NCBI RefSeq assembly: GCF_025643275.1
Contig: NZ_CP089977.1
Location: 2,074,667-2,106,666, forward strand
DNA length: 32,000 bases
Direction of reading: 5' to 3'
Origin: Moraxella nasicaprae
Lineage (GTDB): Bacteria; Pseudomonadota; Gammaproteobacteria; Pseudomonadales; Moraxellaceae
Made by a program: the position numbers and the translations under genes. The notes beneath the pieces are model-generated. The model searched no databases. It had not been told where the DNA came from and saw nothing but the letters and a program-made list of their open reading frames with translations. Shown piece after piece: positions 3,007 to 25,468 of this stretch. Numbering within the stretch: position 1 is the stretch's first letter; every line of letters begins with the position of its first letter.

Positions 3007-3008
3007 CA

Positions 3009-4691: not shown

Positions 4692-4701
4692 GTAGGTCAA
4701 A

Positions 4702-5052: not shown

Positions 5053-5060
5053 GGGCGAGC

Positions 5061-8680: not shown

Positions 8681-9259
8681 ATGTATTACATTTTTAATAA
8701 AGATGGTAAAAATATCGGTCAGTGCGACTTTGAGCCAAACGCAGAAGACTTAGCAAGTCGCCAAGAAAGCTATCAACTGTACAAAAATCCTTTACAACAA
8801 GGGGATGAAATTTGGCTTGTTGATGGAAAAATCACAATCATCAGCCCGGCTCAATTAACGACAGAAGAGCTTAAAGTCCAACACCAATCCCAAATCTGGG
8901 AAGCCATCAAACAAAAACGTCACACCATCACTCGTGGCGGGGTTTATGTCAAATCGGTCAAAAAGTGGTTTCATACCGATGATAGTTCTCGCACACAGTA
9001 TTTGGCATTGCAAATCTTGCCACAGCTACCGCCTGATTTAATGTGGAAAACGATGGATAACAGCTTTGTCAAATTGGATAAGGCGTTATTGACCGAGCTT
9101 GCGATGACGATTTTGACCGCCGAGCAAGCTGATTTTGCTAATGCTGAAAAGCACCGTTTGGCAATGTTACAGGCACAAAATCCCCTAGAATACGATTATT
9201 CAAAGGGTTGGACAGCCATTTATGACCCAACTGACAAACAAGGAGCAAGCGATGAATAA
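8681..9259 (+). CDS. Probable tail fibre assembly/chaperone protein
   Basis: 192 aa. The start overlaps the fibre stop (taATG), which is the gpG/Mu-U chaperone position. Assigned mainly by synteny. Confidence 0.5.
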   Translation: MYYIFNKDGKNIGQCDFEPNAEDLASRQESYQLYKNPLQQGDEIWLVDGKITIISPAQLTTEELKVQHQSQIWEAIKQKRHTITRGGVYVKSVKKWFHTDDSSRTQYLALQILPQLPPDLMWKTMDNSFVKLDKALLTELAMTILTAEQADFANAEKHRLAMLQAQNPLEYDYSKGWTAIYDPTDKQGASDE

Positions 9260-9707
9260 AGTCTATTTAGCTTGCTATCGTGGGCGTGGCGACAAATTGA
9301 CCCACCGCCTATGTGATGGCATTACCCGCTTTTTTACTCGTGGCAAATACAGCCACACCGAGATTGCCATCGCCTTGCCTGACGGTCGTTACCAATGCTA
9401 TTCATCAAGCGTGCGTGAAGGTGGTGTGCGTACCAAGATAATGCCCTTAAATCCTGACAAATGGGACTTAATCGCCCTTGGTGGCATTTCGCCCGAACAA
9501 ATTACCCGCTATTACCGACAAAATCACGGCTCGGATTATGACCTTTTGGGGGCGTTGGGCTGTGTGGCGGGACTACCACAGAACGCAGATAAATTCTTTT
9601 GTTCTGAGTGGTGCTACAACGCCATTTTTGGGTCAAATCAAGGCTTTCGGTTTAGCCCCAATCAGCTTGCCGAGATTGTTCGCCATTTATCCATTTTGGA
9701 TAACTAA
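9252..9707 (+). CDS. Hypothetical protein, possibly a permuted papain-like (YiiX/C92-type) cysteine hydrolase
   Basis: Start chosen at MNKVYLACYRG, preceded by AAGGAG. His (KYSHTEIAI) precedes Cys (KFFCSEWCY), the order seen in permuted NlpC/P60-like enzymes. This is a weak motif-level call. Confidence 0.35.
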   Translation: MNKVYLACYRGRGDKLTHRLCDGITRFFTRGKYSHTEIAIALPDGRYQCYSSSVREGGVRTKIMPLNPDKWDLIALGGISPEQITRYYRQNHGSDYDLLGALGCVAGLPQNADKFFCSEWCYNAIFGSNQGFRFSPNQLAEIVRHLSILDN

Positions 9708-9732
9708 TTTTGTTCTTATTTAGGAGAAATCA

Positions 9733-10254
9733 ATGCCAAATCCAAGTAACTACCCAACCCAAATCACGCCACATTTTAGCTATCGTGAGCTGACAAGAAG
9801 CGAAACTGCCAGACGGCATGGAGTTGCAAACATCCCAAGCCAAAGCGATCTTGCCAACATCACTTATACCGCTCATCAGCTTGAAAAGGTGCGTGCTTAT
9901 TTAAATGACAAATACCAAAAGCCCATCGCCATCATCGTAACTTCTTGCTTTCGTAGCGAAAGGGTTAATAAACTGGTTGGTGGTTCAAAAACTTCCGCTC
10001 ATCGCTTTGGACTGGCGGCGGATTGTGATGCTACAGGCTTTACATCAAGGGCATTTGCCAAAGAAATCATTGAGATGCGTGATAAGGGCTTGATTGCCTT
10101 TGATCAGCTGATTTTGGAATTTCCAGAAAGAGGTGATGGAGCATGGGTGCATTTGGGCTTTAAAAAAGACGGCAAAGGTCAAAGAAATCAAATCTTAACC
10201 GCCACCAAACGAAACGGCAAAACTGTGTATTTGCAAGGCTTGCAAGGAGGTTAA
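9733..10254 (+). CDS. Peptidase M15 family (D-Ala-D-Ala carboxypeptidase-like) peptidoglycan hydrolase, probable endolysin
   Basis: HFSYRELTRSETARRHGVANIP, the Zn ligand motif SAHRFGLAAD (Hx6D) and AWVHLGF. RBS taggag lies upstream. Confidence 0.8.
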   Translation: MPNPSNYPTQITPHFSYRELTRSETARRHGVANIPSQSDLANITYTAHQLEKVRAYLNDKYQKPIAIIVTSCFRSERVNKLVGGSKTSAHRFGLAADCDATGFTSRAFAKEIIEMRDKGLIAFDQLILEFPERGDGAWVHLGFKKDGKGQRNQILTATKRNGKTVYLQGLQGG

Positions 10255-10362
10255 GATGATTTAGATTAAACGATAAAAAAAGAAAAGACGGTCGGTATGA
10301 CGGTGTGCGACCACCGCCATACCAGCCACGCAGTGTGAGTGCGTAAGCCCAAAGAACCGCCT

Positions 10363-10374
10363 GCTTAGCTAAGC
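10363..10374. promoter_or_regulatory. Perfect 12-bp palindrome GCTTAGCTAAGC upstream of the com-like gene (candidate operator or terminator element)
   Basis: Seen directly. It lies 41 nt before ATG 10415 and is followed by a T-rich run (tgttatttta). An imperfect 16-bp stem (10290-10305 pairing with 10312-10327) lies just upstream. Confidence 0.3.
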
Positions 10375-10414
10375 GGTGTTATTTTACCACAAAATCCATA
10401 GGATTACGCAAAAA

Positions 10415-10609
10415 ATGAAACAGCGTTGCACAAATTGCAAAAAACTTTTAGCCATTGGCACGGGCAATTTTGCCATCAAATGCCCAAGATGCAAAACTTT
10501 AAATCAAATTAACACGCAAACCAAAGAATGCCACGAGCATCATAACCCTTTAAATAAGGAAACCTATGAATGCTCAAAACAACCCCCAACCAACCCAATC
10601 CACCCCTAA
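10415..10609 (+). CDS. com: Mu Com-like zinc-finger translational regulator
   Basis: MKQRCTNCKKLLAIGTGNFAIKCPRCKTLNQI has the same CxxC...KLL...I.CPRCK arrangement as phage Mu Com (MKSIRCKNCNKLLFKA...IEIRCPRCKRHII, recalled from memory). It sits at the prophage right end and its 3' end overlaps the next gene by 44 nt, as com does with mom. Confidence 0.75.
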   Translation: MKQRCTNCKKLLAIGTGNFAIKCPRCKTLNQINTQTKECHEHHNPLNKETYECSKQPPTNPIHP

Positions 10610-11443
10610 CCCCAAACAATACCCAAAATCAAAACCCAGTGTCGGCAGTCTCTTTGCTGGCATTGGCGGATTTGACTTGGGATTTGAAAACGCAGGTTTT
10701 TACACCAGCTGGCAAGTGGAAATTGACCCCATTTGCAAAGCGGTGTTATCAGACCGTTTCCCCCACGCCACCCAGTTTGACGATGTTAGAAACTGCTTGC
10801 CCAAAATCCAAGCCCTGCCAAATGGCGGAAGTGTCGATGTCATGTCTCCATGGCAGGCAAACGAGCAGGACTTCACGGACAGCGGACAGGCTTGTTCTTT
10901 GATGCTATCGGTATTATCCAAGCAATTAAGCCAAGATTTGTCGTGCTTGAAAATGTCACAGGTCTCATCAATTCCAACGATGGCAAAGACCTACAAACAG
11001 TCATTGAAACGCTTGCCCAATGCGGGTATGTGGGATTTTGGCGAGTGCTGGACAGCCGTTATTTCGGAGTCCCCCAAAAACGCCGTAGAGTATTCTTGGT
11101 TGCAGGTCTTGGAGAATACCCACCATTTAGCCTTATGGCTGACTTGGGGTCAGTGGAACGCATTTCTGGCAAGACTGAATCGCAATCGTGCTGGGCGGAC
11201 GCACACCATACGCTACTGGCAGGGGTCGGCTCATCCGCCATCAACATCAATTGTGCTGATATCATCGCTGTGCCAAATGGACGGCATCAGATGGCTGTCA
11301 GGGAGCGAACGACTGTCGATGATGGGCTTTGCAAAGGATTGGATGAGACCAACGCTTGTGAGGCTAGGACTGCGGGAAACGCCGTCTGTCCGCAAGTCGC
11401 ACAGTTTATCGCAAGCCACTTGATGACGTCTTTTAACCCATAA
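10566..11443 (+). pseudogene. DNA (cytosine-5) methyltransferase, disrupted by several frameshifts
   Basis: Motif I SLFAGIGGFDLGFENAGF is in frame 1. A PCQ triplet occurs only in frame 2 (10813-10821). AGKRAGLHGQRTGLF, ENVTGL and QKRRRVFLVAG are in frame 3. Motif IX ERLSMMGFAKDW is back in frame 1, and motif X GNAVCPQVAQFI is in frame 3. Confidence 0.65.
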
Positions 11444-11506
11444 TTGAACCAGCATTTCAACCATTTTGAGTGTCTTGAACGCCTTTAACTTTAAAAGGAT
11501 AAGTTT

Positions 11507-12373
11507 ATGACACTCAATTCACTTTCTAACAAACATTACAAAACCGCCCCTTTGCCATTTACAGGGCAAAAGCGAATGTTTTTAAGGCACTTTGAAAAAA
11601 TCTTAAAAGATAATGTCTCAAATGATGGAGAGGGCTTTACGGTGCTTGATGTCTTTGGCGGTTCTGGACTGCTTGCTCACAATGTCAAGCGTATCTTGCC
11701 CAAAGCCAACGTCATTTATAACGACTTTGACGGCTATGCTGAGCGTTTGGCTCATATTCCCACCACCAATCGCTTACGCCAAGAGCTGTTTGAAATCTTA
11801 AAAGACGAGCCAAGAAGTGCCAAATTATCAAACACCACCAAAGCCAAAGCCCTAGACCATATCCGTAAAAGTGCCGACAACGGGACTTTTGTTGATGTGC
11901 AAACCTTGGCAGGTTGGTTGTTGTTTAGCGGACGACAAGTGGGCAATCTTGATGAGTTTTTGGCAGAGTCCACCTTTTATAACCGTATTGTCAAAACTGA
12001 CTACGACACCGCAGATGGCTATCTGGAAGGTCTTATCATTGAATGCCTAGATTTTGAAAAGCTGTTACAAAAATACCAAGACACCCCAAATTGCTTGCTT
12101 CTGCTTGACCCGCCTTATGTTTGCACCGCACAGGGGGCGTATGCCAAGCACGGCTATTTTGGCATGACGAAGTTTTTACGGCTTATGCAGTTTGTGCGTC
12201 CACCCTTTATCTTTTTTAGCTCCACCAAAAGCGAGTTGATGGATTATATGGCTTATGTGGAGCAGTACGAGCCACCCACTTGGCAAAGGGTTGGGGGCTT
12301 TGAGCGGATTGTTGTCAATGCTCGCATTAACGCACAAATTGGCTATGAAGACAATATTTTGGTTAAGTTTTAA
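11507..12373 (+). CDS. N6-adenine DNA methyltransferase, Dam-like (D12 class); no adjacent restriction gene
   Basis: The AdoMet motif VLDVFGGSGLLAH precedes the catalytic LLLLDPPYV (alpha-group order). The ORF is an intact 288 aa with RBS aaaagga. Confidence 0.7.
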   Translation: MTLNSLSNKHYKTAPLPFTGQKRMFLRHFEKILKDNVSNDGEGFTVLDVFGGSGLLAHNVKRILPKANVIYNDFDGYAERLAHIPTTNRLRQELFEILKDEPRSAKLSNTTKAKALDHIRKSADNGTFVDVQTLAGWLLFSGRQVGNLDEFLAESTFYNRIVKTDYDTADGYLEGLIIECLDFEKLLQKYQDTPNCLLLLDPPYVCTAQGAYAKHGYFGMTKFLRLMQFVRPPFIFFSSTKSELMDYMAYVEQYEPPTWQRVGGFERIVVNARINAQIGYEDNILVKF

Positions 12374-12463
12374 AAAGTGAAAATTCATTACAAAAAGACT
12401 GGACTACGCTCTATGAGTACGGCAGTATGTGCCTTATAAATTAACAAGTTAAAGGTAAATGTA

Positions 12464-12910
12464 ATGTTAGACATTCAAACGGTTTCAAGTTTTGTCCAAG
12501 AGTATGGTGTGGTAGATTTTGACTGCGAGATGGACGATGGCGTACTTTGGTTTCGGGGTGTCAATTGTTATTTGATTATTGGCAAAGTTACTGACAAGCA
12601 GGTGTTTTTGACGGTTTGGGAAGATGATGAGTGCAATGAAGTCATTGAAAACTTTGAAATCCAGAACCTTGATGAATTGAATGTTTGCTTAAAGAAATAC
12701 GCCTTGATTGCTCAGGTAAGCACCAAGCAAGATGAAACCATCCAAAAACCAACCGACACCACGATGATTGATATCTACTTTAAGCTCATTAAAGACAAAT
12801 TGGCAGAACATCAAATCAACCTTGATTTTGAAAAACAAAGCCAAGCCGAAAAGCTGGTCATTCGCCACATTGAGGATAAACTGGTGGAGGTTATCAAATT
12901 TTTGCAATAA
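12464..12910 (+). CDS. Hypothetical acidic protein (last prophage gene)
   Basis: 148-aa ORF followed by a strong terminator. I recognise no motif. Confidence 0.5.
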   Translation: MLDIQTVSSFVQEYGVVDFDCEMDDGVLWFRGVNCYLIIGKVTDKQVFLTVWEDDECNEVIENFEIQNLDELNVCLKKYALIAQVSTKQDETIQKPTDTTMIDIYFKLIKDKLAEHQINLDFEKQSQAEKLVIRHIEDKLVEVIKFLQ

Positions 12911-12929
12911 CCAAGTAAGATAAAAAAGT

Positions 12930-12960
12930 AAATGCCCCAAGTAAGATTGGGGCATTTTTT
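12930..12960. terminator. Bidirectional rho-independent terminator
   Basis: Stem aaatgcccca (12930-12939) pairs with tggggcattt (12948-12957) around an 8-nt loop. T6 follows on the + strand and an A-run precedes it (T-run on the - strand). It lies between convergent ORFs. Confidence 0.75.
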
Positions 12961-12983
12961 ATGGGGTAATTGTAAAAATGAAA

Positions 12984-15900
12984 TTATCTTGCACATAGTG
13001 CAACAAAACCAAAAAGATATTTATTGCATAAATAGGCGAGATTTTTCGCGGCGGGCATCATCATCTCCAATCTTCCTGTATTTATTAGGGCTGCCAATCT
13101 ATTTGCTTCTTCCTGATTGGCTTTTGGTGCATTTGCTCTAATTTTATTATAATAAGCCCCATTCCATCTCACCACCTCCTCAGCCATCTGCACTGCCATA
13201 TTCACATCTTCTTCTGCTAGGGCTGCTACTGTCCCTGCGATGAGTTTGGCTTGGTTGATGATACTTTGTCTTTGAGAGTCTGTTAGGGTAGTGGGGTCAT
13301 CTATTTGCCAATCTGCCCAGATTTCTGCCATACTAGCACCTAAGGCACCTGCTTGGCAAGTTGATCCTTGTGCTTTGGCAGATAGACAGCCTGTGAGTCC
13401 TGCGGCAAGTTTGTGGGCGATGTTGTTAATGTTGCCATCTGTATCAATGGGTTTAACCAAATGAGCAAAGGCTTGTTGATGTGATAGGGCAATCAGTTGA
13501 TTACCAAGATTGGTTTTTAGGTTGTCTTCTAAGTCTGTGCCATAGATGGCAGATTGTAGTAGGCTTTTTGAAGTACTTTGGGCAATGCCTTTGATGAATC
13601 TGTCATTAAGACTTAACTGGGTTTGGTCAATGCCTTGTATGTTTAGTCCTTTATCAATCTTATTGCTGATACCAGCACTGGCGATGGCAAAGGCAAGCTG
13701 TTTGGCATTGTCTTTATTGCCAAGCTGCTTGATGGCGGCTTTGATGTTGCCTTGATTATTGATTAGGCTGATGGTGGCTTGTTCGGCAAGGGTGCTAAGA
13801 GCGGTATTTGCCATCGCTGTCAGGGTATGACTGCCCAATAAAGTACCGTTAATCGGTGCAATACCGCCTGTTGCCATTCCCATGGCAATGGTTAAGATGG
13901 CAGCCCCTGCTGGAGTAAGACCTGCTTGCTGGTAGTTCCATTCTTTTTGAGTGAGAATAAGGGTCTGCCAGTCGATGTTGTTTTGCTGGATGAGCGAATT
14001 TAGATAGCTGTATTCGGGCTGTTTGGCAAGTTCAAGGATTTGTTCCTTGATGACTTTTCTTTGGACATCTTTTTCGCTGATAGGGATTTGTACCACAAGA
14101 CCGCCATCGGCAACAAAACTAGGCGGTGTACTACCTGTAAAGCTGGGTAAAACAGCTGTTTGAGTATATTGTCCTTTATCTTGCATTCGTTGCCAAAAGA
14201 CTTCATTGGCTTGTGAGGTGGTGCTTATATTGAGAGTGCTAATCGCTGGAAGTAGATGAACTTTGCCGCCTGCTTCAATATTTGCACCAGACAGATAGCT
14301 AAATATACTGCCTTGTAGGGTGGTGTCGCCAAGAGATTTGGTATTGATATAACGAGCGGTCAAAGAGGCGGGCAGGGCAGTAATTTGCAATTTGTGATGA
14401 TTGGTTGTTGCATTGCCTGCTTTAACGCCCAAGATGCGTCTTTTGACCTGAGTATCTTGATGATGCTCATGCACATCATTGACGCTAAATAGATTGATTG
14501 CACCTGTAGCAAAGACACTGATATTGCCTGTCGTACTCATTTTGGTGGCATAAAAGTCAGCATTACTTTGATGACCTTGAGCGGTTAATGAGATATGATG
14601 GGCAGCCAAAGAAGTCGGTAGGGCGGTGGAATACTCATCTTGGGTTTGAACATTGATGGTTTTGCGATTGAGTGCACTGCCTTTTTTGCTGCTACTTTCA
14701 TCGTAGCGATGGGTATAATTGATGGCATGGTCAACGAGTAAATGATGATTAGCAGCGATGGTTAGGTTAGACTTAGCATCAATGTTGCCAGCTTGTACAA
14801 CCAAATGGACTGGCTGCCCTGCTTGATTGGTCTTGGTGGCAGATAGGCTGACATTACTGGCTGTGATTTGACTTGGCACAAACAAAGCATGGTTGCGATA
14901 ATAAGAGGAGTTTTCCTTGCCCATTTCATAGATGTTGTGTGAGCCATCGACTAGGATGCTGGCGGTGATGTTTTGGTCGTTTTTGTGGTATTTGTCAGTT
15001 AATGTACCCTGTGCTTGCAAAGTGATGTTATTGGCAGCGGTCAAGTTCGATGAACGGATTAGAATGCCTTGAGCAGCATTCATGCTGATATTGTTTTGTG
15101 CTGTCAGGGTGGAGGGCTGATATTCTGTACCGATTGGATTTCTTTTCAAGTCAGCCAGTTGGTCAGTCAATCTTGATACATCAGCTTGCAAAGCCTCCTC
15201 TTTTGATTTGGCAGGCAAATGCTTAGATAATACCGATTCTAATTCGTTGATTTTGGCGTTGGTTTGGTTAATTAGTCGGTCATAGTCAGCCACAGTCTTT
15301 GGATCTGCCGGCGAAGTGGGTGATGCTGAACGAAATCTAATCCCTGATGGTGGGGGAGGCGGTGGGGGAGGTAAGAGAGTGTCGCCAAGCGATCTGCTGT
15401 TTTCTGGTAGAGATGGCGTGGCAGGATTGCTTAATGCCTGTCTTTGACTATGATGCAAAGCTAGCTGAAATTGCAGAGAATTAATCTGAGTCTGCAATTG
15501 TCGATAAGACTGATATGCGTCAGATTTTTGAAAGATTGCTAATGCTTGCTTGGCTTGTTTGAGCTGTTTTTCTATATTGTCAATCGTATGTATGGGCAAT
15601 GCTTGACCATCTAGGCGATTGCTTAGAGCATCAACCAGAACGGAGCCCTTCCCAGCATTTAGATGGATATTTTTACCTGTAATATTTGCCCCTTGTAAAA
15701 CAATCTCTTGTGCGGATATGGTCAAATTTCCTTTTGGAGTAAGTTGTGCTAATTGACCTGAGCCAATACCCTTAGTGCCTTCATGACCGATTAAATCAAT
15801 GTTGCCATTTTGGGACTGTAGCCATAAATCTCCATCAGCAGATAATTGATGTGTCTGAGGTCGAATGTGCAATGCTTGCTCGCTAATAATAGATAAGTCG

Positions 15901-17531
15901 CCACTTAGTGTCGTAGTTTGCGGATTTTTGGTTAACAGCTGTGTTTTGGTTGCATTAGCAAATAATTGACCCTGCGGCTTGATGGACAGCTTTTTGGTTT
16001 TTAATAAAATTGCACCAGCCGTCAGATTGGTCGATCCTGTAATCGTATGCAAACCAAGTGAAACGCTACTTAAGATACCCTTAGCACTTAAATTACCACC
16101 TATATTTTGATCGCCTGTGGTATAAAGCGTTAAATGATGATCGGCATTGGCAGTCGTGTTTTGCCAAACTAGGTCTTTTCTAGACTCAATAGAGATGTTT
16201 TTGTGTGCAGTTAAATTACTGTTAGTCAGCGTTTGATTTTGGTGTGTGTAGAGATTGATTGATCCATCTGCATTTAACTGGTTGTCAGTCATTTGTGCAC
16301 TGCCAGCTAATGATGCTACAGTGATGTTGCCTGTTGTACGAATACTACTTTTACCGATAGATAGAGCGTCTTTGGTAACTAACTGGACATTGCTGGCAGT
16401 CATATTGGACTGCTGTACGCTGAGCGTCTTGGCTTTGGTTTCAATGTTGCTGGCAGTTAAATTTGTTTGATGTAGATTAAGGGTGTTGTTTGTTGTTAAA
16501 AGGATGTCTCTCCCTCCTGTCACATTGCCTGCCAAAGTTTGATTGTTAGCATTTAGGTGGATATTGCCTTGTTTGGTGCTCATCACCCCTTGTGCCGACT
16601 GGTAAATATCTGTTTGGCTACTTAGTAGGATTTGATGATCTGCATGTATATTGCCTGTGTTTTTGATGTATCCATCACTACTGACATAGACTTGCTGAGC
16701 GGCGTTTAAGCTACCAGCATTATTGACACCAACGCCCTGATCGGTAACAATCAAACGAATATTGCCAGCATACATACCGCCAAGCTGACCTGTATCAATA
16801 GCAATGGTGGCAGCGGAAGATTTATTTGATGATGCTTGAACAGGAGTGGAAAGTCCATTGGTAATAATATTAGAGCCTGCAACAACATTAATACTATCAT
16901 TGGCATGGATTTTGCCATTTAATTCCACTGCTTTAGCATATAGATTAAGATAATTGGCTTGATGCCTATCGGACATACCTGTTTGACCGATATTAATTTT
17001 ACCAGCATTGATTTGATGGCTAATGTTGCCCTGCAAATGACTAACCGTGCCAGTTGTTAATGTTGCCTCATTTGTGTTAATAAACCCAGCACCAGAAACT
17101 ACAATTCCTGACGGGTTGGCAATGATAACATTGGCTGTTTGTCCAGCAACCTCAATAATACCAGCAATATTGGTGGCTTTACTACTGTTAATTTCATTGA
17201 TGATGGTATGGGCAGAACCTTGTTGTAAAAAAGGATTACCCTCAATCTGATTGGCAAGCTGTGTCTGTGTACTACCACGAGCATTGTTTAGCACGACACC
17301 TATGTCATTAACATTGAACCTTTCGTATTGATTATGAGATATGCCATTAACAGGTGTGCGAATCTGTACCACAGGAACAGCTTGTCCATTAGTATGAGTT
17401 CCTGCAAGAATAATGGGTTTTTTATTAGAATCTGCTTTTGGATCGCTGATAACTTGGGCAATGCTTGATGTTGAAATTGATAAAAGAATGGCAGAAATGG
17501 CAATATTCAAAGATGATTTTGAAAATAGCAT
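12984..17531 (-). CDS. cdiA: CdiA/filamentous-haemagglutinin-type TPS exoprotein, toxin-less truncated copy (1457 shared codons plus a 58-aa tail)
   Basis: Identical to the 1779-aa copy through VVRWN. It then reads GAYYNKIRAN...GRLEMMMPAAKNLAYLCNKYLFGFVALCAR*. The last 25 or so codons lie in the putative prophage end. Confidence 0.85.
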   Translation of the reverse strand: MLFSKSSLNIAISAILLSISTSSIAQVISDPKADSNKKPIILAGTHTNGQAVPVVQIRTPVNGISHNQYERFNVNDIGVVLNNARGSTQTQLANQIEGNPFLQQGSAHTIINEINSSKATNIAGIIEVAGQTANVIIANPSGIVVSGAGFINTNEATLTTGTVSHLQGNISHQINAGKINIGQTGMSDRHQANYLNLYAKAVELNGKIHANDSINVVAGSNIITNGLSTPVQASSNKSSAATIAIDTGQLGGMYAGNIRLIVTDQGVGVNNAGSLNAAQQVYVSSDGYIKNTGNIHADHQILLSSQTDIYQSAQGVMSTKQGNIHLNANNQTLAGNVTGGRDILLTTNNTLNLHQTNLTASNIETKAKTLSVQQSNMTASNVQLVTKDALSIGKSSIRTTGNITVASLAGSAQMTDNQLNADGSINLYTHQNQTLTNSNLTAHKNISIESRKDLVWQNTTANADHHLTLYTTGDQNIGGNLSAKGILSSVSLGLHTITGSTNLTAGAILLKTKKLSIKPQGQLFANATKTQLLTKNPQTTTLSGDLSIISEQALHIRPQTHQLSADGDLWLQSQNGNIDLIGHEGTKGIGSGQLAQLTPKGNLTISAQEIVLQGANITGKNIHLNAGKGSVLVDALSNRLDGQALPIHTIDNIEKQLKQAKQALAIFQKSDAYQSYRQLQTQINSLQFQLALHHSQRQALSNPATPSLPENSRSLGDTLLPPPPPPPPSGIRFRSASPTSPADPKTVADYDRLINQTNAKINELESVLSKHLPAKSKEEALQADVSRLTDQLADLKRNPIGTEYQPSTLTAQNNISMNAAQGILIRSSNLTAANNITLQAQGTLTDKYHKNDQNITASILVDGSHNIYEMGKENSSYYRNHALFVPSQITASNVSLSATKTNQAGQPVHLVVQAGNIDAKSNLTIAANHHLLVDHAINYTHRYDESSSKKGSALNRKTINVQTQDEYSTALPTSLAAHHISLTAQGHQSNADFYATKMSTTGNISVFATGAINLFSVNDVHEHHQDTQVKRRILGVKAGNATTNHHKLQITALPASLTARYINTKSLGDTTLQGSIFSYLSGANIEAGGKVHLLPAISTLNISTTSQANEVFWQRMQDKGQYTQTAVLPSFTGSTPPSFVADGGLVVQIPISEKDVQRKVIKEQILELAKQPEYSYLNSLIQQNNIDWQTLILTQKEWNYQQAGLTPAGAAILTIAMGMATGGIAPINGTLLGSHTLTAMANTALSTLAEQATISLINNQGNIKAAIKQLGNKDNAKQLAFAIASAGISNKIDKGLNIQGIDQTQLSLNDRFIKGIAQSTSKSLLQSAIYGTDLEDNLKTNLGNQLIALSHQQAFAHLVKPIDTDGNINNIAHKLAAGLTGCLSAKAQGSTCQAGALGASMAEIWADWQIDDPTTLTDSQRQSIINQAKLIAGTVAALAEEDVNMAVQMAEEVVRWNGAYYNKIRANAPKANQEEANRLAALINTGRLEMMMPAAKNLAYLCNKYLFGFVALCAR

Positions 17532-17673
17532 TTTAACTTCCTTGTAAAATTGTCAGCTCCTTCTTAGATTTAGTGAAAGTTTAGCAAATACCAAAAAATA
17601 GTTCAAGTCGGAATTGGTATGATTTTTGAGGAAATTTAATCACGGGTTGGTGTGTATGAATACCTTATTTAAC
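13171..17673 (-). repeat. 4503-bp perfect direct repeat, copy A (cdiA promoter, 5'UTR and codons 1 to about 1454)
   Basis: Offset 7795 to copy B. Every stretch I compared is identical and all six-frame ORFs match in both copies. Identity ends at 17673/17674 on one side. On the other side, mismatches appear at 13170 and 13167. Confidence 0.9.
17578..17606 (-). promoter_or_regulatory. Candidate sigma70 promoter of cdiA copy A
   Basis: The - strand reads TTGAAC, a 17-nt spacer (tattttttggtatttgc), then TAAACT, about 45 nt upstream of the ATG. SD AAGGAAG lies 5 nt before the ATG. Confidence 0.5.
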
Positions 17674-18142
17674 TAATCTTTTATGTAACGAACTTCAAAA
17701 TTATAATAATATTAAAAATCAATTATTAACTAATTTCTTTGATTTTTGAGTTCATAAACAAGCATTTTGTTCGTCTTATTATGCCACATCTTATAGATAT
17801 TATAAGTCTTTTGCTTGCAGAAATGCCAAGACAAGACTGCGAAAAAATTAAAAAAATGAGAGTTTGGTTCCCACAAGAACGGGAGAGGAGCGGTGTTCTT
17901 ATGTGTCATGTAAAGCAGACTATCTGTGCAATACAGCCTAAAACAAGGCATGGAGCATCCGCTAAAACTGATGGCACGCACCACCTTTATCCCATGGATG
18001 GATGACATCTGGGATCGGGGTATGTACGAAAGACAGAGTGCTGATTATTACTGGCAAGGTTATAAAGATTTGTGCTTTAGAGTGCAGGCGTATGTCAATG
18101 AGAATCCCAAGCTAAGAGACATGTATCCCTAAACCGCTTTAT

Positions 18143-18178
18143 CAAGAATAAAAAACCACCATCGAAAAGATGGTGGTT
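18143..18178 (-). terminator. Rho-independent terminator ending the cdiA-immunity operon
   Basis: Stem aaccaccatc (18154-18163) pairs with gatggtggtt (18169-18178) around the loop gaaaa. On the - strand it is followed by ttttttatt. It lies 50 nt after the stop at 18228. Confidence 0.75.
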
Positions 18179-18227
18179 GGTGGGGTTGGTTATGCAGTGT
18201 ACTAGCACAATGCTGAGTCTGATATAA

Positions 18228-19094
18228 CTATAACTTACTAGCCCAAGGACCAAAATCAAACCTAGAATAATCCTCTCCAACTTGTGAAAATACATGTAAG
18301 AAATATTCATCTAGCATCTCTTGTGGGTTATTGATTTCATAAATTCCATTAATAAAGTCGCCATCTTTTACCCAAAACATACGATGGTCATAATAGTAAC
18401 ACATGAGTATTAAATCATATTCTTTTGGGTCTTCATCAGGCTTACAGCAATCTATCATAACCCTTAGATTGGGAAAACCATCTGTACGATATTTTTCTTG
18501 TTTTTCAATACCTTCAATTTCAATATCAATAAAAGCATAGGGAATTTTTTTAACCAAACTTTCAATTGCTTGCTTGGCTTTTTTGCGTGAGTTGGGTAAG
18601 TAAATATCAAATGGTTTCCAACAGCTATATGGGTCTCCGATTAGCATGGTTCCCCCTTGAATATACCTAACACTATCAGATAGTAACACGCCACCAAATG
18701 CCTTTAACCAACCATCTTTTAAATAGTTTGGTAGCCAATGGTAATAATCTTCACTAGGGTCAGTTAAAAAATAAATTCTTTGGTTTAACTCAAAAAATGT
18801 TGATAAAGATAAATTTAACTCAATTAATTCATACCAATAAACTGTTAATTGGCAATTTAATTGGAAATCATTTAAATATTGATAGGTTTTTGGATAATGG
18901 GCTTGTAATGATAATATGGATTTGTGAATATCCAATCCTAACTGTCTGATTTGTTCATCATAAATCCACTTATAATCACTGTTATTGATATAATCCATTT
19001 CTTTGTGCTTCATATCAGAGACAAAATCTGCAACATACTCAACAATTTTATTTGACATATTTTGCTCAAGTTTGTCTTTTGTATAGATAGGCAT
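18228..19094 (-). CDS. Hypothetical protein, second immunity-position ORF (paralogue of 19130..19990)
   Basis: The ORF is open from 19106. The second ATG (19094, MPIYTK) has GGAG 6 nt upstream. It is AT-rich. It shares PKTYQ.L and the C-terminal I..(I/L)NNPQE..D.Y..H.FS....(D/R)FDF.P with the upstream ORF. Confidence 0.7.
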   Translation of the reverse strand: MPIYTKDKLEQNMSNKIVEYVADFVSDMKHKEMDYINNSDYKWIYDEQIRQLGLDIHKSILSLQAHYPKTYQYLNDFQLNCQLTVYWYELIELNLSLSTFFELNQRIYFLTDPSEDYYHWLPNYLKDGWLKAFGGVLLSDSVRYIQGGTMLIGDPYSCWKPFDIYLPNSRKKAKQAIESLVKKIPYAFIDIEIEGIEKQEKYRTDGFPNLRVMIDCCKPDEDPKEYDLILMCYYYDHRMFWVKDGDFINGIYEINNPQEMLDEYFLHVFSQVGEDYSRFDFGPWASKL

Positions 19095-19129
19095 AGTTTT
19101 CTCCATAAAAACATATCTAATTCTATAAT

Positions 19130-19990
19130 CTAAAAATCCACCATATATGGAGTAAAATCAAAGTCGCCATCTTGACCCGAAAAAATATGGGCTGCGTAAC
19201 TATCAATGGCTTCTTGTGGATTATTCAATCTTTTTATGCTAAATACATCAGCATTTTGGATAATATAGATATTTTCTCCCTGATCAATAGATGAGCAAAA
19301 TAATTGGAAACCAGTGTTGCTATAGTCGTCCATAGTTCGTGTATCTAATAGATTTCTTAACTCAAAATAATCATTTCTATTATCCCCTGTATACTGATCG
19401 TCATCATAATCTCTCACGATGCGATGATTAAACTTAGCATCTAAAAAATCACAATATTTATCTCTATTTTGTCTAGTTTCAAAATTATCTATAATAGAGT
19501 GAATTGGACTTTGTAAAGTTGTTGGCAGACGGCTTTTAAAAGGACTAGTAACTGTGTCTTCTGCAATATGCCACGCATCTGTGTGGAGTATCCAAGAGCG
19601 AAGAACAAAAACTGGTAAATTTTTGTAAAAAATACTATCAGGATCTTGTTCGTAGCAAGGAATTGATGGATATGATAAATAAAAACATTGATGATTAACA
19701 ATTATACCAAATTGAGTAATATCTCCCATAATTTCTGGATAAGGTGATTTTTCTACAGCATAGAAGAACTCTGCTTTTAAAAGCAGCTGATAGGTTTTGG
19801 GTTGAAGGCTTTCAAAGGGTTGGACTAAATATTCCTTTAAATCGCCTTTTGAAATAAAATGGTAGCCATCATATTTTCTTTCATTGCATTTTAAACTTAG
19901 TTCCATAAATGGAATATCATCAAAATCATTTTGATAAAAGACTTTATCACAACTTTCCTCTAACTGAGTTTTAGTCAAAAATAGTTTCAT
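19130..19990 (-). CDS. Putative CdiI-type immunity protein for the HNH toxin (family unrecognised)
   Basis: 286 aa. The start overlaps the cdiA stop as ATGA (19987-19990), with GGAG inside the last cdiA codons, indicating translational coupling. This is the canonical immunity position. Confidence 0.65.
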   Translation of the reverse strand: MKLFLTKTQLEESCDKVFYQNDFDDIPFMELSLKCNERKYDGYHFISKGDLKEYLVQPFESLQPKTYQLLLKAEFFYAVEKSPYPEIMGDITQFGIIVNHQCFYLSYPSIPCYEQDPDSIFYKNLPVFVLRSWILHTDAWHIAEDTVTSPFKSRLPTTLQSPIHSIIDNFETRQNRDKYCDFLDAKFNHRIVRDYDDDQYTGDNRNDYFELRNLLDTRTMDDYSNTGFQLFCSSIDQGENIYIIQNADVFSIKRLNNPQEAIDSYAAHIFSGQDGDFDFTPYMVDF

Positions 19991-22900
19991 GATTTTTTTC
20001 TCCGCTTAAATAATTCTTGATGAACTTTTTCGGTTGCATCTTTGAGTATCTGCTGCTGTTGCCTTAACAAATATGCTCTATATTTAGGAGATATTTCTTT
20101 ATTCCCCTTAACATATTTAACCCATCCATCAGTACCTGTTTCAATCTTAGAACCCTTAGAAGAGTTAAGATGTTTAGGTAGTGGCTGTAAATTAGAAGGA
20201 TTATTTATGAGCTTTTCTTGTACATCTTTTGGCAAATCATTAAAGCCTGGAATTTTTTTAAATTCCGCTCTGGGGAGAATATGATCAAAAGATGCTACAG
20301 CGTCATCGGGAAAGAATTTTTTGGTATTTGTAAAAGGATCCAAATACATTACCTTGCCAGTTTTAGCATCTACCCAATCACCTTTGATTAAAATCTCGGC
20401 AGCATTACCATATTTGTTGCCAAAATCACAACAATTCGCATTATGCACCCACACACCCAATCTGCCCACATGATAGGTGTGAAAGTCATCCACTTCGATA
20501 TTATAGACAGTGTCGGTGTGGTTGGGTAGTAGGTATTGGCTTATAACTTCTACTTCTTGATTGTTTCTATCAAGTAGTATCATGCCTTGTTCTAGTAAAG
20601 ACGCTTTTAGCCAGCCTGTATCTTTAATCCAAAATGGGTGTTCAGCTGTGGTTTCTAAGGTTTCAATTTGACCTTGATGGTTTTTGACCGTTACTTGGAA
20701 AATGGGTTGGTCAGGTGTTGCTTTGGTGGCAATGACAGGACGATAGCCGTATTCTAGGGTAATGTCATTTCTTGTCCAAATCAGTTCACCACCTGTGAAG
20801 GTTTCGATGGTTTTCAAGCCTTCTGATGTTTCAATCAGGGTTCCTGCGGTAAAGCAAACGGTGCCTTTCTTGCACAGTTTAGAGATGCTATTGATAATAG
20901 CGGCACTAGCACCAGCACCAAAACCACCACCCAATCTATTTAAACTGGTGGTTGCATTCCACCTAACCACCTCCTCAGCCATCTGCACTGCCATATTCAC
21001 ATCTTCTTCTGCTAGGGCTGCTACTGTCCCTGCGATGAGTTTGGCTTGGTTGATGATACTTTGTCTTTGAGAGTCTGTTAGGGTAGTGGGGTCATCTATT
21101 TGCCAATCTGCCCAGATTTCTGCCATACTAGCACCTAAGGCACCTGCTTGGCAAGTTGATCCTTGTGCTTTGGCAGATAGACAGCCTGTGAGTCCTGCGG
21201 CAAGTTTGTGGGCGATGTTGTTAATGTTGCCATCTGTATCAATGGGTTTAACCAAATGAGCAAAGGCTTGTTGATGTGATAGGGCAATCAGTTGATTACC
21301 AAGATTGGTTTTTAGGTTGTCTTCTAAGTCTGTGCCATAGATGGCAGATTGTAGTAGGCTTTTTGAAGTACTTTGGGCAATGCCTTTGATGAATCTGTCA
21401 TTAAGACTTAACTGGGTTTGGTCAATGCCTTGTATGTTTAGTCCTTTATCAATCTTATTGCTGATACCAGCACTGGCGATGGCAAAGGCAAGCTGTTTGG
21501 CATTGTCTTTATTGCCAAGCTGCTTGATGGCGGCTTTGATGTTGCCTTGATTATTGATTAGGCTGATGGTGGCTTGTTCGGCAAGGGTGCTAAGAGCGGT
21601 ATTTGCCATCGCTGTCAGGGTATGACTGCCCAATAAAGTACCGTTAATCGGTGCAATACCGCCTGTTGCCATTCCCATGGCAATGGTTAAGATGGCAGCC
21701 CCTGCTGGAGTAAGACCTGCTTGCTGGTAGTTCCATTCTTTTTGAGTGAGAATAAGGGTCTGCCAGTCGATGTTGTTTTGCTGGATGAGCGAATTTAGAT
21801 AGCTGTATTCGGGCTGTTTGGCAAGTTCAAGGATTTGTTCCTTGATGACTTTTCTTTGGACATCTTTTTCGCTGATAGGGATTTGTACCACAAGACCGCC
21901 ATCGGCAACAAAACTAGGCGGTGTACTACCTGTAAAGCTGGGTAAAACAGCTGTTTGAGTATATTGTCCTTTATCTTGCATTCGTTGCCAAAAGACTTCA
22001 TTGGCTTGTGAGGTGGTGCTTATATTGAGAGTGCTAATCGCTGGAAGTAGATGAACTTTGCCGCCTGCTTCAATATTTGCACCAGACAGATAGCTAAATA
22101 TACTGCCTTGTAGGGTGGTGTCGCCAAGAGATTTGGTATTGATATAACGAGCGGTCAAAGAGGCGGGCAGGGCAGTAATTTGCAATTTGTGATGATTGGT
22201 TGTTGCATTGCCTGCTTTAACGCCCAAGATGCGTCTTTTGACCTGAGTATCTTGATGATGCTCATGCACATCATTGACGCTAAATAGATTGATTGCACCT
22301 GTAGCAAAGACACTGATATTGCCTGTCGTACTCATTTTGGTGGCATAAAAGTCAGCATTACTTTGATGACCTTGAGCGGTTAATGAGATATGATGGGCAG
22401 CCAAAGAAGTCGGTAGGGCGGTGGAATACTCATCTTGGGTTTGAACATTGATGGTTTTGCGATTGAGTGCACTGCCTTTTTTGCTGCTACTTTCATCGTA
22501 GCGATGGGTATAATTGATGGCATGGTCAACGAGTAAATGATGATTAGCAGCGATGGTTAGGTTAGACTTAGCATCAATGTTGCCAGCTTGTACAACCAAA
22601 TGGACTGGCTGCCCTGCTTGATTGGTCTTGGTGGCAGATAGGCTGACATTACTGGCTGTGATTTGACTTGGCACAAACAAAGCATGGTTGCGATAATAAG
22701 AGGAGTTTTCCTTGCCCATTTCATAGATGTTGTGTGAGCCATCGACTAGGATGCTGGCGGTGATGTTTTGGTCGTTTTTGTGGTATTTGTCAGTTAATGT
22801 ACCCTGTGCTTGCAAAGTGATGTTATTGGCAGCGGTCAAGTTCGATGAACGGATTAGAATGCCTTGAGCAGCATTCATGCTGATATTGTTTTGTGCTGTC

Positions 22901-25326
22901 AGGGTGGAGGGCTGATATTCTGTACCGATTGGATTTCTTTTCAAGTCAGCCAGTTGGTCAGTCAATCTTGATACATCAGCTTGCAAAGCCTCCTCTTTTG
23001 ATTTGGCAGGCAAATGCTTAGATAATACCGATTCTAATTCGTTGATTTTGGCGTTGGTTTGGTTAATTAGTCGGTCATAGTCAGCCACAGTCTTTGGATC
23101 TGCCGGCGAAGTGGGTGATGCTGAACGAAATCTAATCCCTGATGGTGGGGGAGGCGGTGGGGGAGGTAAGAGAGTGTCGCCAAGCGATCTGCTGTTTTCT
23201 GGTAGAGATGGCGTGGCAGGATTGCTTAATGCCTGTCTTTGACTATGATGCAAAGCTAGCTGAAATTGCAGAGAATTAATCTGAGTCTGCAATTGTCGAT
23301 AAGACTGATATGCGTCAGATTTTTGAAAGATTGCTAATGCTTGCTTGGCTTGTTTGAGCTGTTTTTCTATATTGTCAATCGTATGTATGGGCAATGCTTG
23401 ACCATCTAGGCGATTGCTTAGAGCATCAACCAGAACGGAGCCCTTCCCAGCATTTAGATGGATATTTTTACCTGTAATATTTGCCCCTTGTAAAACAATC
23501 TCTTGTGCGGATATGGTCAAATTTCCTTTTGGAGTAAGTTGTGCTAATTGACCTGAGCCAATACCCTTAGTGCCTTCATGACCGATTAAATCAATGTTGC
23601 CATTTTGGGACTGTAGCCATAAATCTCCATCAGCAGATAATTGATGTGTCTGAGGTCGAATGTGCAATGCTTGCTCGCTAATAATAGATAAGTCGCCACT
23701 TAGTGTCGTAGTTTGCGGATTTTTGGTTAACAGCTGTGTTTTGGTTGCATTAGCAAATAATTGACCCTGCGGCTTGATGGACAGCTTTTTGGTTTTTAAT
23801 AAAATTGCACCAGCCGTCAGATTGGTCGATCCTGTAATCGTATGCAAACCAAGTGAAACGCTACTTAAGATACCCTTAGCACTTAAATTACCACCTATAT
23901 TTTGATCGCCTGTGGTATAAAGCGTTAAATGATGATCGGCATTGGCAGTCGTGTTTTGCCAAACTAGGTCTTTTCTAGACTCAATAGAGATGTTTTTGTG
24001 TGCAGTTAAATTACTGTTAGTCAGCGTTTGATTTTGGTGTGTGTAGAGATTGATTGATCCATCTGCATTTAACTGGTTGTCAGTCATTTGTGCACTGCCA
24101 GCTAATGATGCTACAGTGATGTTGCCTGTTGTACGAATACTACTTTTACCGATAGATAGAGCGTCTTTGGTAACTAACTGGACATTGCTGGCAGTCATAT
24201 TGGACTGCTGTACGCTGAGCGTCTTGGCTTTGGTTTCAATGTTGCTGGCAGTTAAATTTGTTTGATGTAGATTAAGGGTGTTGTTTGTTGTTAAAAGGAT
24301 GTCTCTCCCTCCTGTCACATTGCCTGCCAAAGTTTGATTGTTAGCATTTAGGTGGATATTGCCTTGTTTGGTGCTCATCACCCCTTGTGCCGACTGGTAA
24401 ATATCTGTTTGGCTACTTAGTAGGATTTGATGATCTGCATGTATATTGCCTGTGTTTTTGATGTATCCATCACTACTGACATAGACTTGCTGAGCGGCGT
24501 TTAAGCTACCAGCATTATTGACACCAACGCCCTGATCGGTAACAATCAAACGAATATTGCCAGCATACATACCGCCAAGCTGACCTGTATCAATAGCAAT
24601 GGTGGCAGCGGAAGATTTATTTGATGATGCTTGAACAGGAGTGGAAAGTCCATTGGTAATAATATTAGAGCCTGCAACAACATTAATACTATCATTGGCA
24701 TGGATTTTGCCATTTAATTCCACTGCTTTAGCATATAGATTAAGATAATTGGCTTGATGCCTATCGGACATACCTGTTTGACCGATATTAATTTTACCAG
24801 CATTGATTTGATGGCTAATGTTGCCCTGCAAATGACTAACCGTGCCAGTTGTTAATGTTGCCTCATTTGTGTTAATAAACCCAGCACCAGAAACTACAAT
24901 TCCTGACGGGTTGGCAATGATAACATTGGCTGTTTGTCCAGCAACCTCAATAATACCAGCAATATTGGTGGCTTTACTACTGTTAATTTCATTGATGATG
25001 GTATGGGCAGAACCTTGTTGTAAAAAAGGATTACCCTCAATCTGATTGGCAAGCTGTGTCTGTGTACTACCACGAGCATTGTTTAGCACGACACCTATGT
25101 CATTAACATTGAACCTTTCGTATTGATTATGAGATATGCCATTAACAGGTGTGCGAATCTGTACCACAGGAACAGCTTGTCCATTAGTATGAGTTCCTGC
25201 AAGAATAATGGGTTTTTTATTAGAATCTGCTTTTGGATCGCTGATAACTTGGGCAATGCTTGATGTTGAAATTGATAAAAGAATGGCAGAAATGGCAATA
25301 TTCAAAGATGATTTTGAAAATAGCAT
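19987..25326 (-). CDS. cdiA: CdiA-type contact-dependent inhibition toxin / filamentous haemagglutinin-family TPS exoprotein with a HINT-HNH C-terminus
   Basis: 1779 aa. Sec signal MLFSKSSLNIAISAILLSISTSSIAQ. TPS domain motifs VPVVQIRTP..GISHNQYERFNV, GNPFL and IIANPSGI match FhaB NPNL/NPNGI. Long FHA-type repeats, a P8 tract, and a pretoxin region ending in VVRWN. Confidence 0.9.
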   Translation of the reverse strand: MLFSKSSLNIAISAILLSISTSSIAQVISDPKADSNKKPIILAGTHTNGQAVPVVQIRTPVNGISHNQYERFNVNDIGVVLNNARGSTQTQLANQIEGNPFLQQGSAHTIINEINSSKATNIAGIIEVAGQTANVIIANPSGIVVSGAGFINTNEATLTTGTVSHLQGNISHQINAGKINIGQTGMSDRHQANYLNLYAKAVELNGKIHANDSINVVAGSNIITNGLSTPVQASSNKSSAATIAIDTGQLGGMYAGNIRLIVTDQGVGVNNAGSLNAAQQVYVSSDGYIKNTGNIHADHQILLSSQTDIYQSAQGVMSTKQGNIHLNANNQTLAGNVTGGRDILLTTNNTLNLHQTNLTASNIETKAKTLSVQQSNMTASNVQLVTKDALSIGKSSIRTTGNITVASLAGSAQMTDNQLNADGSINLYTHQNQTLTNSNLTAHKNISIESRKDLVWQNTTANADHHLTLYTTGDQNIGGNLSAKGILSSVSLGLHTITGSTNLTAGAILLKTKKLSIKPQGQLFANATKTQLLTKNPQTTTLSGDLSIISEQALHIRPQTHQLSADGDLWLQSQNGNIDLIGHEGTKGIGSGQLAQLTPKGNLTISAQEIVLQGANITGKNIHLNAGKGSVLVDALSNRLDGQALPIHTIDNIEKQLKQAKQALAIFQKSDAYQSYRQLQTQINSLQFQLALHHSQRQALSNPATPSLPENSRSLGDTLLPPPPPPPPSGIRFRSASPTSPADPKTVADYDRLINQTNAKINELESVLSKHLPAKSKEEALQADVSRLTDQLADLKRNPIGTEYQPSTLTAQNNISMNAAQGILIRSSNLTAANNITLQAQGTLTDKYHKNDQNITASILVDGSHNIYEMGKENSSYYRNHALFVPSQITASNVSLSATKTNQAGQPVHLVVQAGNIDAKSNLTIAANHHLLVDHAINYTHRYDESSSKKGSALNRKTINVQTQDEYSTALPTSLAAHHISLTAQGHQSNADFYATKMSTTGNISVFATGAINLFSVNDVHEHHQDTQVKRRILGVKAGNATTNHHKLQITALPASLTARYINTKSLGDTTLQGSIFSYLSGANIEAGGKVHLLPAISTLNISTTSQANEVFWQRMQDKGQYTQTAVLPSFTGSTPPSFVADGGLVVQIPISEKDVQRKVIKEQILELAKQPEYSYLNSLIQQNNIDWQTLILTQKEWNYQQAGLTPAGAAILTIAMGMATGGIAPINGTLLGSHTLTAMANTALSTLAEQATISLINNQGNIKAAIKQLGNKDNAKQLAFAIASAGISNKIDKGLNIQGIDQTQLSLNDRFIKGIAQSTSKSLLQSAIYGTDLEDNLKTNLGNQLIALSHQQAFAHLVKPIDTDGNINNIAHKLAAGLTGCLSAKAQGSTCQAGALGASMAEIWADWQIDDPTTLTDSQRQSIINQAKLIAGTVAALAEEDVNMAVQMAEEVVRWNATTSLNRLGGGFGAGASAAIINSISKLCKKGTVCFTAGTLIETSEGLKTIETFTGGELIWTRNDITLEYGYRPVIATKATPDQPIFQVTVKNHQGQIETLETTAEHPFWIKDTGWLKASLLEQGMILLDRNNQEVEVISQYLLPNHTDTVYNIEVDDFHTYHVGRLGVWVHNANCCDFGNKYGNAAEILIKGDWVDAKTGKVMYLDPFTNTKKFFPDDAVASFDHILPRAEFKKIPGFNDLPKDVQEKLINNPSNLQPLPKHLNSSKGSKIETGTDGWVKYVKGNKEISPKYRAYLLRQQQQILKDATEKVHQELFKRRKKS
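19990..20439 (-). other. C-terminal toxin domain of CdiA: cysteine-less HNH-type nuclease (aa 1630-1779)
   Basis: SFDHILPRAEF...NPSNLQPLPKHLNSSKG matches the classic HNH pattern DHI.P...NLQ.L....N..K. Confidence 0.65.
20440..20856 (-). other. HINT (pretoxin-HINT / bacterial intein-like) domain of CdiA, aa 1491-1629
   Basis: CFTAGTLIET (Cys1), TAEHPFW (TxxH block B) and VYNIEVDDFHTYHVG..GVWVHN (terminal HN), followed by ANCC. Confidence 0.75.
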
Positions 25327-25468
25327 TTTAACTTCCTTGTAAAATTGTCAGCTCCTTCTTAGATTTAGTGAAAGTTTAGCAAATACCAAAAAATAGTTCA
25401 AGTCGGAATTGGTATGATTTTTGAGGAAATTTAATCACGGGTTGGTGTGTATGAATACCTTATTTAAC
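20966..25468 (-). repeat. 4503-bp perfect direct repeat, copy B
   Basis: See copy A (offset 7795). Confidence 0.9.
25373..25401 (-). promoter_or_regulatory. Candidate sigma70 promoter of full-length cdiA
   Basis: Identical to 17578-17606: TTGAAC, 17-nt spacer, TAAACT. Confidence 0.5.

Follow-up and report, generated by a model that had tools for sequence, protein, structure and literature searches.

How can a bacterium replace the toxin that it deploys without giving up its immunity to the old one? Loci for polymorphic toxins are thought to change the deployed toxin by recombination with silent orphan cassettes. When this happens as a simple recombination, the gene for immunity to the old toxin is lost, which should be suicide for a cell surrounded by its siblings; the escape that has been proposed is to duplicate first and to recombine second. 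This question is raised by a contact-dependent growth inhibition (CDI) locus in Moraxella nasicaprae, found in a stretch of 32,000 nt (RefSeq assembly GCF_025643275.1, contig NZ_CP089977.1, positions 2,074,667 to 2,106,666) that we call the window and whose coordinates are used below. Two cdiA reading frames lie on its minus strand, they share a perfect direct repeat of 4.5 kb, and a prophage sits at the toxin end of one of them. We think it probable that the locus records a recent tandem duplication, one copy of which has since switched its toxin while the other was disrupted by a phage.

Some names are needed before the evidence can be given. Copy 1 (repeat copy A) is the 20966-25468 side of the repeat and copy 2 (repeat copy B) the 13171-17673 side. 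CTa denotes the main toxin of copy 2 and of its relative, CTc the PT-HINT toxin of copy 1, and X the segment 17674-18153. The nearest relative is Moraxella sp. GCA_030530725.1, with the CdiA protein P0001 and the locus L001. The features that carry the argument are as follows.

20966-25468, minus strand: repeat copy A, a leader of 142 bp and codons 1-1454, its upstream flank on the yajC-secDF side; 100% identical to 13171-17673.
13171-17673, minus strand: repeat copy B, a leader of 142 bp and codons 1-1454, its downstream flank being the toxin CTa.
17673/17674, no strand: proposed join point of the duplication, where X ends and the leader begins, identity falls from 100% to unrelated sequence, and homology of L001 to copy 2 begins.
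19987-25326, minus strand: cdiA-1, 1779 aa, with TPS (aa 25-290), DUF637 (1240-1399), PT-VENN (1414-1455) and PT-HINT (1497-1630) domains and a C-terminal toxin.
12984-17531, minus strand: cdiA-2, 1515 aa, the same scaffold followed by 33 aa of CTa, 24 codons from the prophage end and a stop.
20956-20967 (copy 1) and 13161-13172 (copy 2), minus strand: the VRWN junction codons, at which the PT-VENN profile ends and after which relatives diverge.

How exact is the repeat? A base-by-base comparison at an offset of 7795 gives one unbroken identical run of 4,503 bp with 0 mismatches, and one base outside either end the two sequences are unrelated, with essentially random mismatch. The repeat contains the 142 bp upstream of the ATG (at 25326 in copy 1 and 17531 in copy 2) and the first 1454 codons of cdiA. 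Its 3′ limit is the second base of a valine codon, where copy 1 reads GTT AGG TGG AAT and copy 2 GTG AGA TGG AAT; both encode VRWN, and everything beyond is unrelated. Between the repeats lies a unique segment of 3,292 bp (17674-20965). An earlier note, made from the letters of this DNA, had reported the identity of 13171-17673 and 20966-25468 and asked for an alignment to confirm it; that alignment returns 100% over 4,503 bp, and the coordinates, the length of the unique segment and the synonymous codons at the junction all proved correct. A perfect repeat of 4.5 kb cannot arise by chance. Two direct repeats of this size should be a substrate for RecA, which could collapse them to one copy or amplify them.

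Judged by their domains, both open reading frames (ORFs) are CdiA-type TpsA proteins. The TPS secretion domain is recognized in both copies at aa 25-290 (PF05860, E=1.7e-40; TIGR01901, E=1.3e-17), as is the pretoxin region (DUF637, E=7e-21; PT-VENN, 27.9 bits with a cutoff of 20.3), whose PT-VENN match ends at aa 1455 inside VRWN. The description of the locus as two cdiA genes is therefore right for the TPS, DUF637 and PT-VENN domains, which both ORFs carry, but copy 2 keeps only 33 toxin codons, so it is not a complete toxin gene.

Is VRWN the point at which toxins are swapped? P0001 is 97% identical to the window's cdiA over residues 1-1457, and the alignment ends exactly at ...EESVRWN. In a second clade, at 38% identity (P0002/3/5/9/15), ...AAEAVRWN is kept and is followed by at least three unrelated C-termini. 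An array in M. oculi (L005 1187-6305) places side by side stubs that end in AAEAVENN, AAEAVENN, VAVENN and AAEAVRWN. Altogether, divergence begins right after the junction three times in L001 and once in L005, and VRWN is the junction in three clades; relatives from Acinetobacter carry V/I-x-NN at this position. Since L005 mixes VENN and VRWN stubs, VRWN is this lineage's allelic variant of the VENN toxin-swap junction within the same pretoxin family. This agrees with the proposal that the repeat breaks at an equivalent of VENN: the PT-VENN profile ends at VRWN, and P0001, the second clade, L001 and L005 diverge directly after it. The other C-termini that the earlier note suggested looking for behind VRWN do exist, in P0001 and, with at least three unrelated ones, in the 38%-identity clade.

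What did the locus look like before it was rearranged? A good guide to this is L001, which has one cdiA in the same yajC-secDF context, carrying CTa and followed by two small ORFs. The first orphan there has 530 bp of pretoxin homology and a different toxin, together with a 169-aa ORF. In the second orphan, only 8 bp separate the preceding stop from the point at which homology to the main gene sets in (ATGGCAGTGCAGATGGCTGAGGA...), and this homology runs for ~41 bp up to VRWN; past VRWN the orphan is 94% identical over 232 bp to the start of the CT of copy 1, and the contig ends inside HINT. This second orphan, a HINT-type CT at L001 17694-17923, has a frameshifting indel relative to copy 1 after ...GGGFGAGA, which may be decay or a sequencing error.

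The alignment of L001 is unbroken from window 32000 to 20955, across 25468/25469, which identifies what lies upstream of copy 1 as its native flank. Likewise, L001 9854-14471 aligns to window 17677-13061, and copy 2 is thus in its native context on the toxin side. The window differs from L001 by an extra inner 7,795 bp, made up of CTc, cdiI, an orphan cdiI, X, leader and scaffold. On the L001 contig the scaffold is complete and has unique sequence to its left and right, which suggests that it is single-copy in that genome; the earlier note had proposed to compare related genomes for single-copy and two-copy states. The L001 cassettes, preceded by pretoxin stubs of 530 bp and 41 bp, are like the orphan cdiA-CT/cdiI arrays of Poole et al. 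2011, and the arrays of M. oculi, M. oblonga and Faucicola are longer. The second module of the window is different, as it is a complete promoter-proximal copy of the 4.5-kb scaffold and not a stub.

The toxin end of copy 2 involves two further features.

13061-13160, minus strand: 5′ stub of the toxin CTa, 33 codons, GAYYNKIRANAPKANQEEANRLAALINTGRLEM; identical to the first 33 residues of the 167-aa toxin of P0001.
1-13060, plus strand: right part of a prophage, with tape measure, gpU/gpD-like, baseplate and fibre genes, an M15 peptidase and two DNA methyltransferases, from Pfam and PHROG matches.

DNA homology to L001 continues for 110 bp past the junction of copy 2 and ends at 13061. After the stub, cdiA-2 diverges from P0001 and reaches a stop 24 codons later, within the prophage terminus. 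There is no immunity gene directly behind copy 2; the prophage is there instead. Copy 2 thus reads as a delivery scaffold without a toxin, the toxin having been cut off by the prophage.

What kind of phage is this? Its right terminus lies at 13060 and reads, going inward, TGATGCCCGCCGCGAAAAATC. When the terminus TGATGCCCGCCGCGAAAAATCTCGC is set against the right end of BcepMu, TGAAGCGCGGCGCGATATTTCAGCA, with their first bases in register, 15 of 25 positions match; random window positions gave 6.0 +/- 2.2 matches, and 0 of 20,000 reached 15. The terminal 5′-TG and the end-like sequence start exactly where homology to the relative's toxin stops. The terminus also resembles the R1 end of E. coli Mu, at 13 of 25 positions. 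The best annotated relatives of the gpD-like protein come from the transposable phages AFS-2018a (a Pasteurella phage), BcepMu and phiE255. The genome of AFS-2018a encodes a repressor, transposase A/B, Gam and Mor, and its tail genes form a module at the right end; its deposited ends are 14-bp direct repeats and not Mu-type termini. The right end of the window prophage has tail and baseplate genes in a Mu-type order. A 20-mer of the prophage end has no exact match in IMG/VR. A Mu-type identity is well supported, and the prophage appears to be inserted in the toxin-coding part of copy 2. A phage with a tRNA-targeted integrase was considered and rejected, there being no tRNA in the window.

A related viral contig in IMG/VR, L018 (38.4 kb), is 87% identical to the prophage up to 12925 and then has a different terminal gene, so that the last 135 bp of the prophage are not confirmed by it. 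L018 did not come up when the AFS-2018a transposase was used as the query.

On the other side of the join point, the unique segment is a composite of linker, PT-HINT, toxin, cdiI, orphan cdiI, terminator and gene remnant. It is AT-rich, with 30-36% GC where the scaffold has 40-46%, a contrast that counts in favour of the history proposed below.

20427-20865, minus strand: PT-HINT pretoxin domain, PF07591 (E=7.8e-25), a full-length profile match; its 3′ end, ...GVWVHN followed by ANCC, is at ~20427.
19990-20426, minus strand: toxin domain after HINT, 146 aa, DHILP...NLQP...NSSKGSK; 44% identical to an M. oblonga toxin.
19130-19990, minus strand: candidate cognate immunity gene cdiI-1, 286 aa, its start overlapping the cdiA-1 stop (ATGA); homologues are found only in Moraxella-type contigs.
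18228-19106, minus strand: 292-aa ORF, a putative orphan immunity gene; its DNA is 95.7% identical to M. oblonga L002 3162-4031, which follows a different allele of the same toxin family.
18154-18178, minus strand: terminator-like hairpin and T-run, between the immunity genes and copy 2.
17674-18153, no strand: segment X, proposed tail of the duplicated unit; 17919-18132 on the plus strand is the 3′ remnant of a small, function-unassigned gene.

In other Moraxella and Faucicola loci, 3′ fragments of HINT vary in length, all stop at the equivalent of ~20427, and are followed by different toxin/immunity pairs. The end of PT-HINT thus acts as a second toxin-swap junction, or recombination anchor, in the Moraxellaceae. 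Arrays of up to five orphan cassettes occur in Faucicola mancuniensis (L008 9458-15962), M. oculi (L003) and M. oblonga (L002), where each cassette starts with a PT-HINT 3′ fragment ending in ...GVWVHN and continues with its own toxin and immunity gene. The main gene of Faucicola has VAVENN upstream of HINT.

The sole profile match of the copy 1 toxin is to GmrSD_C, an HNH-type family (E=6.7e-4, 20 bits, below the curated cutoff of 23 bits), and sequence searches gave no PDB or NCBIfam match. A single-sequence AlphaFold (AF2) model had a mean predicted local distance difference test (pLDDT) score of 47.7 and was unusable. The toxin is probably a nuclease of the His-Me/HNH type, an assignment that is weakly supported. 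Behind it, cdiI-1 had no family match in profile searches and its homologues sit on contigs of ~1 kb, and there is a hit in M. cuniculi; by its position it is likely to be the cognate immunity gene. The 292-aa ORF, 37% identical to cdiI-1 over the last 57 aa, is a distant paralogue and is read as an orphan immunity gene.

Less can be said about X. No homologue was found for 17674-17918, and a 24-mer from the end of X is absent from metagenome contigs. Window 17919-18180, on the plus strand, holds the 3′ remnant and the shared terminator of a small gene that elsewhere encodes 106-111 aa. The full gene is found beside an IS3-type transposase fragment and umuDC, or beside an Arc-like repressor, which is uninformative on the native neighbour of X.

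We propose the following history. The ancestral layout would have been that of L001, with leader, cdiA scaffold, VRWN, CTa and cdiIa followed by orphans, the last of these being a 41-bp pretoxin stub with PT-HINT, toxin and immunity genes. A unit that starts with the 142-bp leader and ends with X would have been duplicated in tandem, creating the join of X to the leader at 17673/17674. The scaffold of the upstream copy may then have recombined with the orphan stub through ~29-41 bp of homology just before VRWN, a step for which we can draw on the comparison with L001. In this way CTa and the cassettes in between would have been lost, and the scaffold would have come to be joined to PT-HINT and the HNH-like toxin, giving cdiA-1 followed by cdiI and the orphan cdiI. 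A Mu/BcepMu-like prophage, whose breakpoint we see, would have inserted 33 codons into the CTa of the downstream, parental copy. The net effect would be a formerly silent toxin made deployable from cdiA-1, with the parental immunity genes predicted to lie beyond the prophage, outside the window. Beyond the left end of the prophage, the sequence is predicted to resume at codon 34 of CTa, as it reads in L001 (GATGA followed by ACAAAGAAAACCTGG).

A duplication followed by recombination was proposed for a Salmonella rhs orphan by Koskiniemi et al. 2014 (PMC3967940) and restated for cdi by Ruhe et al. 2016 (PMC4927057) and De Gregorio et al. (PMC6336857). According to the model, the locus is duplicated in tandem; one copy becomes a chimera of main gene and orphan that deploys the former orphan toxin, the other keeps the parental toxin and immunity genes, and the repeats permit reversion. 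The layout of the window fits these predictions, with L001 in the role of the "before" state. The window holds two tandem full-length copies with one novel join point; the CT of one copy is an orphan where the locus is unrearranged, with L001 as proxy for that state, and the CT of the other is the parental one. There are also differences. Here the proteins are CdiA/TpsA, there Rhs proteins of the type VI secretion system. The state is fixed in an assembled genome here, whereas it was found in <2% of an evolved Salmonella culture. The crossover would have used ~29-41 bp of homology, compared with 522 bp in Salmonella, and the parental copy has here since been knocked out by a transposable prophage.

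Several points weigh against this history. The two-copy state is read from the assembly of one genome. If the ancestor's orphan was like that of L001, a crossover within ~29-41 bp of homology would be near the lower limit for RecA. There is no clean microhomology at the join 17673/17674, and the native right-hand neighbour of X was not found, so that the join point is placed by the loss of homology only. The predicted continuation, consisting of the rest of CTa, cdiIa, the orphans and a second CTc cassette, lies outside the window. The order given for duplication, crossover and phage insertion is provisional; the breakpoints can be seen in the sequence, and the events that made them are our reconstruction. 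Finally, no POTRA/ShlB ORF (cdiB/TpsB) is present within the 32-kb window or in the flanks of L001, so that the proteins are only presumed to be secretion-competent.

Could the repeat be old instead? Two full-length TpsA/CdiA proteins served by one TpsB might be a paralogue pair of long standing, homogenized by ongoing gene conversion up to the ends of homology. There is a precedent in the same genus: MhaB1 and MhaB2 of M. catarrhalis are two large TpsA proteins with N-terminal regions that are 99% identical, divergent C-termini and one transporter, MhaC, for both (PMC3699455). Here, in contrast, the identical part extends to the pretoxin junction and takes in the leader. A possible trace of a conversion tract is the orphan-type variant GAGGAGGTGGT in copy 2, where L001 has the main-type GAGGAATCGGT. 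However, the assembly of the closest relative (97% identity) has a single scaffold flanked by unique sequence, no decayed homology of the kind that an old duplication of the upstream region would leave is found beyond 17673, and 0 differences in 4.5 kb that include a non-coding leader most simply mean recency. We consider long-standing conversion unlikely. We are just as doubtful that the extra DNA came from outside, as an incoming leader-scaffold-CTc-cdiI-X segment taken up by natural transformation and joined by one homologous and one illegitimate end, or as a 7.8-kb circle integrated Campbell-style. Horizontal gene transfer with illegitimate recombination has been proposed for CT replacement in Acinetobacter cdi loci (PMC6336857). 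Moreover, the GC content of the cassette is low (30-36%, compared with 40-46% for the scaffold), the same HINT-toxin and immunity modules are in circulation across Moraxella species, with DNA identities of 88-96%, and related cdi loci occur in plasmid-like contexts. On the other hand, CTc is already present as an orphan at the same locus in L001, and the scaffold of the donor must have been 100% identical over 4.5 kb, whereas the nearest known relative differs by ~3%. The donor would therefore be a sibling cell, which reduces acquisition to a variant of duplication and switching.

Perfect multi-kb repeats are also a classic sign of misassembly, and CT switching by orphan recombination generates subpopulations (PMC3967940). 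Each chromosome might then carry one scaffold copy, with the haplotypes CTa::prophage and CTc strung together by the assembler. The junction of X to the leader at 17673/17674 speaks against this. It belongs to neither single-copy haplotype, so an assembler would have needed real reads containing it. Synteny with L001 gives independent confirmation of the two outer junctions, and since one contig runs through both copies, the 4.5-kb repeat must have been resolved by reads or scaffolding. An artefact or mixed population seems to us improbable, slightly more so than either of the preceding alternatives. A duplication mediated by the phage was rejected, as intramolecular replicative transposition gives phage-flanked deletions or inversions and not a phage-free direct repeat. 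A tandem duplication with toxin switching is the explanation that we keep.

Would both copies be expressed? The earlier note had called the genes promoter-equipped and expected both to be transcribed. The element on which this was based, TTGAAC-17-TAAACT in the 142-bp leader, matches the consensus at 8 of 12 positions and was not called by a promoter scan; we would regard it as weak, and neither statement can be upheld on it. A terminator-like hairpin precedes copy 2 by 480 bp. Ahead of copy 1 the intergenic region measures ~600 bp, and the native promoter could lie beyond the duplicated 142 bp. The best sigma-70-like match near copy 2 is TTAATA-18-TATAAT (10 of 12 positions) at 17700-17729 on the minus strand, in X and just outside the repeat. 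If functional, it would be a promoter of copy 2 that copy 1 lacks.

The nearest characterized family to these proteins is the type-I CdiA of Acinetobacter (~2,000 aa; TPS-HET-DUF637-PT-VENN-CT), which has the same architecture at 28-35% identity (E down to 1e-234). Some of its alleles have PT-HINT (e.g. bau-C3), and P0018 has the same DHILP...NLQP toxin. It differs in having V/I-x-NN at the junction, where VRWN is found here, and in an extended signal peptide region that is absent here. The Acinetobacter type-I loci are arranged cdiB-cdiA-cdiI, reportedly without orphans (PMC6336857), whereas the Moraxella lineage has orphan arrays and no upstream cdiB. Since there is no cdiB in the window, the CdiB transporter must be encoded elsewhere, and it may lie beyond the prophage. 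On the opposite strand upstream of copy 1 are yajC, secD, secF and a MatE gene. The VRWN clade at 38% identity, from human-associated metagenomes (L024 10001-20295 and L025), has the order cdiA, cdiI, orphans and cdiB, which is Burkholderia-like, with cdiB downstream of the cassette array. Rep3, Mob/TraI, zeta-toxin and MafA/MafB genes surround these loci, whose setting may thus be a plasmid or mobile element.

The prophage has some further features of its own. After the tail fibres its cargo consists of an M15 peptidase (9733-10254), a C5-cytosine methyltransferase-like ORF (10566-11423), a D12 N6-adenine methyltransferase (11507-12373) and a 148-aa ORF without assigned function (12464-12910). 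Direct repeats occupy 7009-8331, in units of ~885 bp that are 85% identical at 7050-7349 and 7935-8234. A 46-nt motif is repeated three times in the tail-fibre ORFs, and the tape-measure gene contains a 120-bp tandem pair (833-1072) that is 74% identical.

What would this locus mean for the evolution of CDI systems? Until now, duplication before switching was known only by indirect inference for the Rhs system of laboratory-evolved Salmonella, from Southern and PCR signals in a minority of cells. It is a serious possibility, which we put just short of even, that the window holds a naturally fixed snapshot of CDI toxin switching, by duplication and then recombination between main gene and orphan through ~30-40 bp of homology at VRWN, and that a phage later inactivated the parental toxin and may have locked the switch with parental immunity kept. 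If true, this would be a concrete natural example of the model, with the predicted end product in a chromosome, a close relative in the starting state and exact junctions. Apart from this, VRWN is documented here as a functional-looking variant of VENN, and a transposable phage is seen to be able to silence one toxin of a two-copy arsenal.

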